Below are positions 35,901 to 39,952 of a stretch of DNA of 64,000 bases, one piece after another (within the stretch, counting starts at the first letter, position 1; the number at the start of each line of letters is the position of its first letter). A program made the position numbers and the translations under genes. This stretch comes from Planctomycetota bacterium (lineage in GTDB: Bacteria > Planctomycetota > B15-G4 > JADJEK01): the NCBI GenBank assembly GCA_016213895.1, contig JACQZJ010000028.1:1653-65652 (forward strand), in the 5' to 3' direction. The notes under the pieces are model-generated. The model did no database searches. It saw only the letters and a list, made by a program, of their open reading frames with translations, and was not told the DNA's origin.

Positions 35901-36241
35901 ATGATCGGCAACGGCATCTACCGCTTGACCCAGGCATTCCCGGCGGACGGGCGCTTCGGCGTGACGTCGCAACTGCGCAGGGCGGCGACCTCGGTGCCGA
36001 CCAACATCGCGGAGGGATCGCGGCGGCAACGGCCGGCGGACTTCGCCCGGTTCTTGAACATCGCGGAAGGTTCCCTGGCCGAGGTTGAATACCTGCTGCT
36101 GCTGAGTCGCGACCTGGGCTACGTGGCGGGAAAACAGTGGAAGCCCAGCTTGGCGAGACGGGCGAGATCTTCGCGATGCTGCATGCGCTGCGCAGGAAGG
36201 TGGAGGACGGTAGCGGGCCGTCCGGAACTTCCGACTACTGA
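35901..36241 (+). pseudogene. Four-helix-bundle protein (TIGR02436; the '23S rRNA intervening-sequence protein' family), N-terminally truncated and frameshifted
   Basis: The core block [69 protein letters not shown] is in one frame. The C-terminus ETGEIFAMLHALRRKVEDG is in the -1 frame. The shift sits at an A4 run (GGGAAAACAG). Confidence 0.6.
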
Positions 36242-36325
36242 CTTCGAACTTCCGACTCGCGGCGGCGCCGGCCCGCTACAATCGAACAAGACGAGAGGAT
36301 CTCACACGAACTGCGGCGGCCGGCT

Positions 36326-37093
36326 TTGGTTGCGGCGCCGCCGCGATGTGATGGTCGTCAGCGGGTCGTGAGGATGGTCATGGTATGCGCGGATGCCCTG
36401 AGGGGGAAACCGCGAGAACGTCAGCCACGTGGTTGGCTGTTTCGTGCCGGGGCAGTGGCCTTCGGCGCGGTGGTGGTGGTCTTCGCGTGGAGGGTTGTTT
36501 ATGAGCTGGAGGAGCTTCGGTCTGCAGCGGAGGCGTTGTGTACCGAGAGTGCGCGCGCGCACTCGGAGGTCAGGGAGGGACTGAGCCGGGTGGAGCGAGC
36601 GGTCGATAGTCTGATGGGGGCGGAGGTTGTTCTGCCGAATAGGGTATTGGGCAAGGATGATGATGATCCTGCTGCTCGCGGGGACAGCGTGGCGTGGTCG
36701 AAGGATCACGACGAGATTGGCGGGTCGTCGTCGGCTGGCGCTGAGCGAGCCGCTGTGGACCCTGCAGAGGACGTCGAGAGGTCTTGTGCGTGGACTGACT
36801 TCGTGCCGCGAGAGCTGGCCAGTGTGCTGGTGGCGCATGGGCTCACGCCCTTCGACTCGGGCGTGGACCGCGCCTTGTCGGAGGCTGCTCGGCAGTGGCG
36901 AGACGTGGTGCAGGCCGAGGAGGAGGCGCGCGCAGCGTGGAACCAGCGCTACGGCAATGTCGGTGCAAGTGATCCTCTCTGGTCCGAGAGACAAGAAGCG
37001 CAGATGAACATGGAGTTAGTTGGGCGGCGGGAGAGGAAGAGAATCTTGGATGCGTTTGATCTGAGTGTAGGGCAGGTTGCAGCGCGGGAGTGA
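36326..37093 (+). CDS. Hypothetical membrane-anchored coiled-coil protein with atypical codon usage
   Basis: G-first RNY periodicity, but third positions are G/T-rich, unlike the C-rich third positions elsewhere. Anchor sequence AVAFGAVVVVFAWRVVY. The start may be at 36374. Confidence 0.45.
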   Translation: MVAAPPRCDGRQRVVRMVMVCADALRGKPRERQPRGWLFRAGAVAFGAVVVVFAWRVVYELEELRSAAEALCTESARAHSEVREGLSRVERAVDSLMGAEVVLPNRVLGKDDDDPAARGDSVAWSKDHDEIGGSSSAGAERAAVDPAEDVERSCAWTDFVPRELASVLVAHGLTPFDSGVDRALSEAARQWRDVVQAEEEARAAWNQRYGNVGASDPLWSERQEAQMNMELVGRRERKRILDAFDLSVGQVAARE

Positions 37094-37250
37094 AGGAGCG
37101 CGCGCAGCTTGGTGTGGATCTTCCCGCGCACCGTGCCGTGTGCCCTGTCCAGTTCGAGCGCGATCTTCCGGCTCCCTTTCCCTGCTCGAGGCGAGCGATC
37201 AGCGCCTCTCGGTACGGCCCCGGCAGGTCCCCGAGGGCTGCGGCGAGCGC
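37085..37250 (-). pseudogene. ECF sigma factor fragment (region 4 only), frameshifted
   Basis: Minus-strand translation gives LPGPYREALIARLEQGK, then after a 1-nt shift SRKIALELDRAHGTVRGKIHTKLRAL. This matches sigma-70 region 4_2. No region 2 is present. Confidence 0.5.
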
Positions 37251-37265
37251 TTCCCGGGTCTCCTG

Positions 37266-37280
37266 GGGGTGGGGGGGGGG
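37266..37280. repeat. Homopolymeric tract (G5-T-G10)
   Basis: The sequence GGGGGTGGGGGGGGGG is read directly. It sits in the 40-bp gap between the BNR gene stop and the sigma fragment. Confidence 0.9.
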
Positions 37281-37321
37281 TCGAAGGTACGGAAGGGTAG
37301 ACGCTTCCTTCCGCGGCGGCG

Positions 37322-39952
37322 CTACGGGCAGAAGGTCACCTGCAGCGCGTCCGAGTGCTGCACGTCGCCGCCGAAGCCCGGGTCGCGCGCCGCGAACTCG
37401 TAGCAGAAGGACTTGCCGGCGAGCCACGCCGTGACGGGGATCGCGACGGACACCGCGCCGGCAGCGTCCGTCTGCACGTAGGTGCGCGTGACGAAGCCGC
37501 CGGTCCAGATGGTGCCCCAGCCCTCGACGTTCTGGCCCTGCTGGTCGCCGGTGAACAGTACGCCCAGGCTGTTCGGCCGGAAGCCCGCGCCGGCCACGGC
37601 GAAATTCGGGTTGCCCAACGCGGGGTCGCCGCCCGTCGCCGCGATGACCGCGAGCTGGCCGGTCGAGCCAGTCTCGCCGTAGCCGTAGTTCCACACCGCG
37701 CAGCCGGACGGATCGGGCACGCGGTAATCCCAAATGCCGCGCCCGTACGTGCCGAAGCGCATCGTGCCCGCGCTTCGCACCGCCTCCACCGACCACCAGT
37801 TGGTGATCGGCGCGTGCACGTCCATGACGTTCGTCCACGCTCCGGCCGCGCGGTCGTAGCGGTAGGCGCCGGCGTCGGTCGCGGCGTAGATGTCGCCGCT
37901 CCCGTCGCAGGAGTAGGCCAGGCCGTTGACCAGGGTCTGCGGCAGGCCGCTCACGAGCGGCTGCCAGGTCTGTCCGCCGTCGATGGTGCGGATGACTCCG
38001 GGCGCGCTGTAGCCCGAGCCGCCCACCGCGCACTCGAGCGGGTTCGCGGGATGCACGGCGATCGCCTGGCCGTAGAAGTACTGCCCGGCCGGCGCGCCCG
38101 GCAGCGGGCTGGTCCAGGTCACGCCGTGGTCCGTGGACACGTAGACGTAGCCGGCCTCGTTCACCGCGTAGCAGCGCTGGGAGTCGGTGGGGGCGAAGGC
38201 CAGAGCCGTGAGGAAAGCGCCGCCGCCGGCGGTGAACGCCTGGCTCGAGTGCAGAGTCGGGCTCCATGTGGAGAACACGCCCTTGGCGAAGCGCCACAGC
38301 CGGTCGCCGCAGAAGAAGAACGCGGTCTTGTCGAGCGGATCGGCGGCGACCGGCGGCATCCACTCGCAGGCGCAGCCGGCCGGATAGTCGACGAAGAAGA
38401 GCGATGGACTCGACTCGCCCTTCTGCACCAGGATGAAGCCCGGGTAGGTGCTGAACACCCAGGCGTGCGTGCCGTCGGCCGAGGTCAGGTGGCCGTAGTC
38501 GCCGCTGATGAGCTGCGTGAACGGCGTGGACGGGCCCGCGGGCAGGGGCTGCACGAACACGCCGCGCTGGTAGCCCTGGTCCTGGGAGCCGGCGGCGATG
38601 ACCAGCGGGTTCGCGGCCGAGGTGAGCGTGGAGTAGTACTGGCTCACGCCGAGCCCGGAGAGCGAGAGGTTGTTCACCGTGGCCGCGAGCGTGTCGCTGT
38701 CGTAGAGGCCGCCGTCGGTGCAGAAGTACCAGCGCTCGCTCCCCGGCAGCGAGGGATGCGGCAGGCAGTGGAGCCCGAAGATGTCGGCGTGCAGCCTGTG
38801 GGCGGGATCGCCGTAGTAGTCGTACCAGGCGTTGACGTGGGCGAAGTTCGCGCCGCCGTTGCTCGAGCGCCAGGCCTCGACCTCGCCGTAGACCACGACG
38901 TTCTGGTCGGTGATCGAGGCGCAGAGCGGTCCCCAGAAGGAGGGAAGCGTGTTCACCTGGGCGAAGCTCGCGCCGCCGTTGCTGGAGCGATGCAGCTGCC
39001 ACTGGCCGCCCGCGTAGACGGCCGCGTAGAGCGCCGGGGCCCCGGCCTCGGAGCCCGCCAGCACGCCGCTCGACGTGCCGCTCGCGACGGTCGAGAGCTT
39101 GGTGAAGGTGTAGCCGGCGTTGGTGGAACGCAGCAGGTCGCCCTGGTGCAGCAGGTAGAGGGTGGAAGACGCGGCCGCGCCCGTGCGCGGCGCCCAGAGC
39201 CAGGCGTCCGACGCCGGGCTCGAGGACCAGCGCTGCAGGAAGGTGTGGCCGCGATCGATCGAGGCGAAGACGGCGCTCCAGGCGCCGGCGCGTCCCAGGC
39301 AGACGATCGTGTCGCTCGCGTCCTGGAGGACATGCAGCCCGCGCACGCTCGTGATGTTCCCGGCGCCCGCCGGGATCTGCCACGTGGCGCCGCCGTCGTG
39401 CGTCACGCGAAGCCTGCCGTCCACCTCGGCGACCACGACGTCCGGATCGCCCGGATTGCTGCCGGCCACCACGACCAGGTCCTCGACGTGGCCATAGAGG
39501 TTGTCGCCGATCGGCTCCCAGTTCGTTCCCGCGAGCGCGCCGCGCCAGATCCCGCCGAGATCCGACCCGGAGTAGAGCGTGGCCTGGTCCGATCCGATGG
39601 CGGCGCAGCGCATGCGGCCGGCCAGGTTGCTCGAGCCGACCTCCGTCCACGGGCTTGGCGCCGCGCGCGCCAGCCCCAGGCCGGTCAGGCGGTTGCGGCG
39701 CTCCATCTCGCGCGCGCCGTTTTCCGCGTTGATCGCGTGCCAATCGACGCCCGGAGCCGTGCGGTGGATGCGCTCCATCCAGGCGCGTCGGCCGCGTCCC
39801 AGCTCTTCCTCGACGTGGCGGTCGTTGCGGCCTCCCGCGGGCGCGGGCGCGGGCAGCCCTTCGCCCGGCCGGGCGCAGCACCCGAGCGCGGGAGCGAGCA
39901 CGAGCGCAACGAGCGAGACGAGCAGGACGCGGGGGCGGGCGAGGCTTCGCAT
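37322..39952 (-). CDS. BNR/Asp-box repeat lipoprotein (sortilin/Vps10- or xyloglucanase-like beta-propeller glycoside-hydrolase-like protein)
   Basis: Lipobox (LVLAPALGCC). Multiple SxDxGxTW-type Asp-boxes (STNAGYTF, SSNGGASF, SSNGGANF, STDHGVTWT, TIDGGQTWQ). Confidence 0.75.
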   Translation of the reverse strand: MRSLARPRVLLVSLVALVLAPALGCCARPGEGLPAPAPAGGRNDRHVEEELGRGRRAWMERIHRTAPGVDWHAINAENGAREMERRNRLTGLGLARAAPSPWTEVGSSNLAGRMRCAAIGSDQATLYSGSDLGGIWRGALAGTNWEPIGDNLYGHVEDLVVVAGSNPGDPDVVVAEVDGRLRVTHDGGATWQIPAGAGNITSVRGLHVLQDASDTIVCLGRAGAWSAVFASIDRGHTFLQRWSSSPASDAWLWAPRTGAAASSTLYLLHQGDLLRSTNAGYTFTKLSTVASGTSSGVLAGSEAGAPALYAAVYAGGQWQLHRSSNGGASFAQVNTLPSFWGPLCASITDQNVVVYGEVEAWRSSNGGANFAHVNAWYDYYGDPAHRLHADIFGLHCLPHPSLPGSERWYFCTDGGLYDSDTLAATVNNLSLSGLGVSQYYSTLTSAANPLVIAAGSQDQGYQRGVFVQPLPAGPSTPFTQLISGDYGHLTSADGTHAWVFSTYPGFILVQKGESSPSLFFVDYPAGCACEWMPPVAADPLDKTAFFFCGDRLWRFAKGVFSTWSPTLHSSQAFTAGGGAFLTALAFAPTDSQRCYAVNEAGYVYVSTDHGVTWTSPLPGAPAGQYFYGQAIAVHPANPLECAVGGSGYSAPGVIRTIDGGQTWQPLVSGLPQTLVNGLAYSCDGSGDIYAATDAGAYRYDRAAGAWTNVMDVHAPITNWWSVEAVRSAGTMRFGTYGRGIWDYRVPDPSGCAVWNYGYGETGSTGQLAVIAATGGDPALGNPNFAVAGAGFRPNSLGVLFTGDQQGQNVEGWGTIWTGGFVTRTYVQTDAAGAVSVAIPVTAWLAGKSFCYEFAARDPGFGGDVQHSDALQVTFCP

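Follow-up and report, generated by a model that had tools for sequence, protein, structure and literature searches.

In the 64,000-nucleotide stretch of Planctomycetota DNA analysed here (contig JACQZJ010000028.1 of assembly GCA_016213895.1; hereafter the window, with a guanine-plus-cytosine (GC) content of about 70%), positions 35462-37312 form a 1,851-bp block that is absent from the nearest related genome found. We consider this block, at odds of roughly two in three, to be an accessory islet of foreign DNA that was inserted by illegitimate recombination and whose non-functional parts have since decayed. The original prediction, made from the letters alone, had described most of the region as a gene-decay hotspot holding a frameshifted four-helix-bundle gene, an open reading frame (ORF) of atypical codon usage, a fragment of an extracytoplasmic function (ECF) sigma factor gene and a long G tract, and had proposed a recombination- or slippage-prone junction or an old insertion scar. 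On alignment with the related genome, each of these features proved to belong to one lineage-specific block, together with 440 bp that had not been flagged. The idea of a scar was close, as the whole block is missing from the relative; no recurrent recombination or slippage was shown.

Junctions of the block in the related genome

The comparison genome was a single related metagenome-assembled genome labelled Phycisphaera mikurensis (contig DYIW01000052.1; hereafter the relative), which blastn found to be collinear with window positions 24531-44758 at 88-90% DNA identity. Within this stretch the block is flanked by the 3' ends of two native genes that converge, both conserved in the relative. 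To its left is an AEC-type (auxin efflux carrier, Mem_trans) transporter gene on the plus strand (34538-35461; PF03547, E 5.6e-26), about 90% identical to positions 7928-8841 of the relative's contig and ending in a TAG stop codon at 35459-35461. To its right, on the minus strand, is a BNR/Sortilin-type beta-propeller gene (37322-39952), recognised by its domain match and its orthologue, with its stop codon at 37322-37324 (CTA on the plus strand). The BNR gene probably starts at M115 of its long ORF, which would give a protein of about 876 aa with a lipoprotein-like signal, and its orthologue in the relative has 875 aa.

The blastn alignment showed the relative joining window position 35449 to window position 37313 with about 13 bases unaligned, and alignment of both junctions placed the transporter TAG at the same position in the two genomes. 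In the relative this TAG is followed by GGCAGCGACG and then by the CTA of the BNR stop codon, leaving a spacer of 10 bp, whereas the order in the window is transporter TAG, the 1,851 bp of the block, GCGGCGGCG and CTA. The last 9 bases of the relative's spacer (GCAGCGACG) are identical to window positions 37313-37321 (GCGGCGGCG) at 7 of 9 positions, and this segment is read as the conserved rest of the original spacer. The block therefore begins right after the transporter stop codon, and its GC content is 0.665 compared to 0.70 in the flanks. The original prediction had proposed looking in related genomes for an intact sigma and anti-sigma gene pair at this site; none was present in the relative, where the transporter and BNR genes are just those 10 bp apart.

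The block contained neither a transposase nor an integrase, nor did it show a meaningful terminal repeat or target duplication, the only repeat of this kind being a 6-nt GGGTAG; Pfam and NCBIfam profile searches detected no transposase domain in it, and no direct repeats of at least 35 nt involved it. An inverted match of 11 out of 13 bases was observed between 35471-35483, in the first 30 nt of the block, and 37314-37326, which spans the conserved spacer and the BNR stop codon. As about 1.4% of random window pairs match as well, this pairing is suggestive at most, and may be a trace of integration or chance. An insertion sequence, a transposon or a miniature inverted-repeat transposable element was considered and not accepted for the block, given the missing transposase, a repeat limited to GGGTAG and the position of the right arm of the inverted match in target sequence. 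A small hairpin, CGGAAGG-N10-CCTTCCG (37290-37313), was also read from the sequence at the right edge of the block.

One intact gene and two gene remnants

The only intact gene of the block lies on the plus strand at 36374-37093 and encodes 239 aa from the ATG at 36374 (212 aa from 36455 in the NCBI annotation); its longer form, 36326-37093, is identical to NCBI protein HY812_03530. To place its composition, 33 ORFs of the window picked by coding-like composition served as the native reference, and these had a GC content at third codon positions (GC3) of 0.83-0.97 (median 0.92) and a codon adaptation index (CAI) of 0.59-0.87. The ORF falls outside this range, with a GC3 of 0.70 and a CAI of 0.38-0.40, which bears out the unusual codon usage that had been noticed earlier. 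Its third positions comprise 117 G, 50 C, 49 T and 23 A; those of the flanking transporter gene (GC3 0.95) comprise 166 C, 126 G, 9 T and 6 A. As two further ORFs of the window, at 9827-11794 (0.66) and 13700-16124 (0.77), both next to an IS21-like element, also have a low GC3, the ORF is atypical and not unique.

A word-indexed protein search with the ORF found only the protein itself. An exhaustive HMMER search (phmmer) recovered six true relatives of 204-229 aa (E 9e-17 to 1.6e-4), along with one spurious repeat protein, and a profile search added three more members, giving a family of about ten (P0122-P0131) among billions of proteins. The ORF aligns end to end with the six homologues, with 12 invariant columns at W, L, V, G, P and F positions (including W140, G156, P159 and G163), and is therefore taken as a real, intact gene. 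At the N-terminus its protein has a membrane helix, which is followed by a coiled coil, a disordered linker and, at the C-terminus, a conserved helical domain (W..VP..LA.VLV.HGLTPFD.GVDR.L), and the whole family shares this layout, with a variable linker and the C-terminal domain W..LP..LA.VLVEHGLTPFD.GVDRILP... The AlphaFold model of the C-terminal domain was confident (predicted local distance difference test scores of 88-98) and predicts a helical bundle or hairpin; no PDB fold matched the model at E <0.2, Pfam holds no model for the family, and viral and metagenome scans with the family gave no match. The original prediction had counted this ORF into the gene decay, a part that did not stand, as the ORF is not decayed and belongs, over its full length, to an uncharacterised and very rare family of planctomycete proteins.

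Members of the family were located on contigs L007 (322-936) and L011 (6001-6672), and also on L009, L010, L014 and L017. The relative's own member, on L007, lies at a different locus beside chrB/chrA, has a native-like GC3 of 0.81 and is 34-40% identical to the ORF protein, so that the ORF in the window is not its orthologue. Neighbouring genes differ between members, being chrB/chrA on L007, a sigma-fusion gene on which the family member converges on L011-L013, and a ParE toxin gene on L017, with the other contigs too short to tell. With contexts this different, no conserved partner gene was inferred for the family, and the association with sigma genes was treated as chance.

Upstream of the ORF, also on the plus strand, the four-helix-bundle gene at 35901-36241 was found as first described, a gene of the PF05635/TIGR02436 (Avd-like) type whose first frame, from the ATG at 35901, ends in ...LGYVAGK, with the C-terminal helix (TVEAQLGETGEIFAMLHALRRKVEDG...) in another frame that stops at 36239-36241. 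When one base was added to repair the frame, the protein scored 104 bits on PF05635 (cut-off 33.8) and 107.7 bits on TIGR02436 (cut-off 24), and aligned without gaps across the shift to residues 26-120 of the 128 in PDB entry 2GSC. The shift can be placed only within about 36120-36145, which contains G3 (36128-36130) and A4 (36131-36134); the repair is equivalent to changing A4 to A5, and the gain of any single base in this interval suffices. A defect that had gone unmentioned is the loss of the N-terminus. The first 10-25 family residues are missing, with the match beginning at profile position 11-15 and the first half of helix 1 gone, and residues 1-25 of 2GSC have no counterpart, so that there is no uninterrupted full-length ORF and two frames are needed to cover what remains. 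As the N-terminus is still missing after frame repair, the gene would be dead regardless of the shift, and from its sequence it appears to have been disabled twice, by 5' truncation and by frameshift. Its GC3 is 0.82-0.86.

The likeness of this gene to TIGR02436/PF05635 proteins (annotated as 23S ribosomal RNA (rRNA) intervening sequence proteins, with structures 2GSC and 2RLD) is that of clear membership after the 1-nt repair; it differs from them in being 5'-truncated, frameshifted and outside any rRNA gene. PF05635 proteins are homologous to Avd, the accessory protein of diversity-generating retroelements (PMC10053308). The Avd equivalog model NF033474 gave 13.8 bits (E 0.053) on the repaired protein against a cut-off of 80, and the PHROG Avd model an E of 6.6e-4 only. 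No template and variable repeat pair involved the block among direct repeats of at least 35 nt, and no reverse transcriptase gene was present in the block or its flanking genes, the rest of the window not having been scanned for one. On the equivalog score and the lack of a template/variable-type repeat, a diversity-generating retroelement was ruled out.

At the right-hand end of the block, on the minus strand (37262-37078), is the ECF sigma remnant, which likewise matched its first description: profile matches identified region 4 only, interrupted by a 1-nt deletion near 37174-37182. Read on that strand it gives ETREALAAALGDLPGPYREALIARLEQGKG and then, after one base is restored, SRKIALELDRAHGTVRGKIHTKLRALLHS; with the base restored near C3 at 37174-37176 or 37180-37182 it reads ETREALAAALGDLPGPYREALIARLEQGKGSRKIALELDRAHGTVRGKIHTKLRALLHS. 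The repaired remnant scored 23.8 bits on Sigma70_r4_2 (E 3.6e-5), just below the cut-off of 25.7, and 18.2 bits on TIGR02937 against a cut-off of 42.9. Eleven NCBIfam sigma models all placed it in their C-terminal region 4, and homology to region 4 is supported by the E value and these concordant models despite the sub-cut-off scores. Identity to region 4 of the two full sigma factors compared was 31-37%. The remnant had no match to region 2 (Sigma70_r2), with the BNR stop codon lying 60 nt upstream of the region 4 match, and no start codon (ATG, GTG or TTG) was present in its frame before the shift. Its end overlaps the last codons of the intact ORF on the opposite strand. GC3 across the two remnants was 0.80-0.86. 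Compared to ECF (group IV) sigma-70 factors, the helix-turn-helix of region 4.2 is recognisable and the spacing after repair is canonical (16 residues from the R of LPxxxR to the I of the 'IA' pair), whereas region 2 and the start codon are missing, the frame is shifted, the score is below the Pfam cut-off and no anti-sigma gene follows downstream on the strand.

Both frameshifts can be placed in or beside short homopolymer runs, as the original prediction had pointed out. However, about 40% of random 15-nt windows in the 64-kb DNA hold a run of at least 3 bases, and this co-location is therefore weak evidence for slippage.

The reported G5-T-G10 tract was found on the plus strand at 37265-37280 (G5 at 37265-37269, T at 37270 and G10 at 37271-37280), with 41 nt between its end and the BNR stop codon. 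Its G10 is the longest homopolymer of the window, in which one other run of at least 8 was seen. On the minus strand the tract is C10-A-C5 and reads RPPPHPQ in the frame of the sigma remnant, just upstream of region 4; it is part of the dead sigma piece, being a proline-rich stretch ahead of region 4, and there is no intact gene that it could regulate.

The remaining left part of the block (35462-35900) had no recognisable coding sequence on six-frame translation and gave a chance-level match only in an Rfam scan in evalue mode. A hairpin scan detected in it a perfect 13-bp stem with a 6-nt loop (35577-35608), terminator-like on the minus strand with the tail ACTTGTTGAT. A perfect 14-nt inverted repeat lies between the four-helix-bundle pseudogene and the intact ORF (36257-36346), with its arms, at 36257-36270 and 36333-36346, 62 nt apart. 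Its folding was not clearly better than that of shuffled sequences (z -1.6 and -2.4), and an integron attC site at this position was rejected by eye only, no GTTRRRY core being seen at the repeat ends.

Insertion, loss or artefact

In the history that we propose, a DNA fragment from another, somewhat less GC-rich genome would have entered by illegitimate (non-homologous) recombination right after the transporter stop codon. It would have carried the intact membrane-anchored coiled-coil gene, preceded in the same orientation by the Avd-like four-helix-bundle gene, and also the 3' portion of an ECF sigma gene in convergent orientation, which the right-hand end of the fragment would have cut between regions 2 and 4. 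The abutting 3' ends suggest that the ORF and the sigma gene were already neighbours in the donor. Lacking region 2 and a start codon, the sigma piece would have been dead on arrival; the four-helix-bundle gene would have lost its 5' end, and both dead pieces would later have acquired a 1-nt deletion each, as expected for DNA under no selection. We infer the foreign origin, the arrival in a single piece and the polarity, that is, insertion here over loss in the relative. Insertion in the window lineage is favoured because an insertion that spares both genes has a 10-bp target, because a deletion in the relative would need end points at 0-2 nt from one stop codon and at most 10 nt from the other, and because the sole intact gene has clearly foreign codon usage.

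Several points weigh against this history. No outgroup sharing the transporter-BNR pair was found; BNR homologues at 50-59% identity, five of them recovered at 52-59%, were all in other gene contexts and a metagenome scan with the BNR alignment had no match, so the polarity rests on parsimony. The truncation of the four-helix-bundle gene is internal to the block and not at its edge, which calls for more than one event, here or in the donor. In GC3 the two remnants fall only a little short of native values. Donor-like sequence was found nowhere in protein, metagenome, viral, plasmid or phage searches: within these, plasmid DNA matched the block over 78 nt only, in the conserved four-helix-bundle core, and phage DNA gave no match, on which grounds a known phage or plasmid origin was rejected. 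A self-blast of the block against the window and the relative's contig likewise revealed no donor or paralogue. Finally, the source of the window is a metagenome-assembled genome and the relative is represented by a contig of about 4x coverage, in both of which base errors or assembly joins may occur. A known RNA family or defence system was rejected as the identity of the block, since Rfam gave nothing at gathering score (with one chance-level match in evalue mode) and no PADLOC model matched.

A different history would make the block ancestral, with its sigma, four-helix-bundle and membrane-protein genes decaying in the window lineage and wholly deleted from the relative by one or several deletions. 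The independent truncations and frameshifts of the remnants do look like long residence, the 3' flank of BNR homologues is variable among more distant genomes, and deletion bias is general in bacteria. We think this history doubtful, though still to be reckoned with, since the relative's deletion would have to end at the transporter stop codon and 10 nt from that of the BNR gene, and since simple decay in place would need an extra deletion, the sigma piece being so close to the BNR gene that no space is left for region 2; the foreign codon usage of the ORF would still imply an earlier acquisition. Under either polarity the block is accessory, partly foreign and decaying DNA. A technical origin, through a chimeric contig or through homopolymer sequencing or assembly errors behind the frameshifts and the G10 length, with the four-helix-bundle gene really intact, might be raised because the source is a metagenome-assembled genome, with both shifts placeable in or beside short runs and with poly-G being a known trouble spot for some sequencing chemistries. 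It is very unlikely, because collinearity with the relative extends over kilobases on either side, the first base of the block directly follows a stop codon, and frame repair would revive neither remnant, the four-helix-bundle gene still lacking its N-terminus and the sigma piece its region 2 and start codon. Short-read sequencing is not prone to errors in runs of 3-4 bases.

The G10 tract could also be viewed as a functional switch, either as a phase-variable contingency tract or, with the frameshifts as programmed ones, controlling a neighbouring gene. It is the longest homopolymer where long runs are avoided (2 runs of at least 8 against about 18 expected from base composition), and it resembles the poly-G/C contingency tracts of phase-variable genes (for example in Neisseria, Campylobacter and Haemophilus) in being a 10-base G run unusual for its genome. 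Unlike them, it has no intact gene around it or downstream of it: read on the minus strand it leads only into the dead sigma piece, and read on the plus strand it runs towards the 3' end of the BNR gene. A promoter-like site was not detected within 35300-37500, and the relative lacks the tract entirely. With no intact gene downstream on either strand and no such site nearby, we regard a regulatory role as so unlikely that it is scarcely credible. A long shot of another kind is that the block is one copy, now decaying, of a small module capable of transfer. An Avd-like four-helix-bundle gene and the rare membrane/coiled-coil gene would then move as a pair into gaps between convergent genes, and the membrane protein might serve the converging ECF sigma factor as a partner or a sensor.

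Other differences in the window and comparison with genomic islets

Two smaller intergenic indels relative to the related genome were found in the same 20-kb syntenic stretch, at 33860-34535 and 32087-32485. Intergenic gain and loss is therefore common between these genomes and the site is not special; what had been called a hotspot is better described as general intergenic flux. The first of the two, immediately before the transporter gene, includes a small secreted-protein gene (34008-34433; 141 aa) with a native-like GC3 of 0.92, and the relative has about 113 bp instead of this segment. The second is a copy of a dispersed non-coding repeat of about 340-400 nt, whose copies are 72-84% identical and also occur at window 9584-9721 (minus strand) and at positions 88-436 and 3-65 of the relative's contig. 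This repeat is absent from the syntenic site in the relative and is present there beyond the point syntenic to window position 44758. A shared motif, GTCGCGGCCGTTTCCCCGG, occurs twice in the window copy at 32087-32485, which had no Rfam match, and a small mobile element or an RNA gene is a possible identity for the repeat.

Elsewhere in the window, IS21-like genes were observed at 12317-13600 on the plus strand (the C-terminal part of istA followed by an istB-like ATPase gene), within or next to a long minus-strand ORF at 12777-16124. At its N-terminus this long ORF has an ECF sigma factor (regions 2 and 4) to which a membrane helix and a long extension are fused, and it looks as though an insertion sequence has entered the 3' part of this sigma-fusion gene, inside a low-GC3 island at about 9.4-17.4 kb. 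Adjacent direct repeats of 47 and 48 nt, 77-83% identical, were found 41 kb apart at 12085-12180, just upstream of the IS21-like genes, and at 53001-53132. The tandem paralogous genes at 6609-8120 and 8398-9429 share 75-89% DNA identity over several stretches of 100-180 nt, and their product, judged by eye, resembles proteins like the formylglycine-generating enzyme. Directly upstream of the BNR gene, a minus-strand gene conserved in the relative (40021-40533) encodes a 170-aa protein with an H-x3-C-x2-C motif like that of zinc-binding anti-sigma factors, and this protein matched no Pfam, NCBIfam or PADLOC model.

The cluster of oddities that drew attention to the region is explained by a single event, whose importance beyond annotation is slight. 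The four-helix-bundle gene and the sigma piece are to be annotated as pseudogene remnants, and the apparently orphan ORF is rescued as a genuine member of a very rare planctomycete family. The locus also offers a clean case of foreign DNA in a 10-bp convergent gap without recognisable mobility machinery. Amongst known features, the block is most like flexible genomic islets, which are indels of intergenic spacers that are specific to a strain or species and frequently lie between convergent genes. Like these, it is present in one genome and absent from another at about 90% identity, it lies between two 3' ends without disrupting a gene or promoter, and it combines an atypical composition with one intact accessory gene mixed with gene remnants. 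It differs from them in having no integrase, transposase, tRNA target or meaningful flanking repeats. The block is thus a product of ordinary genome turnover and an ordinary case of a known type of feature.

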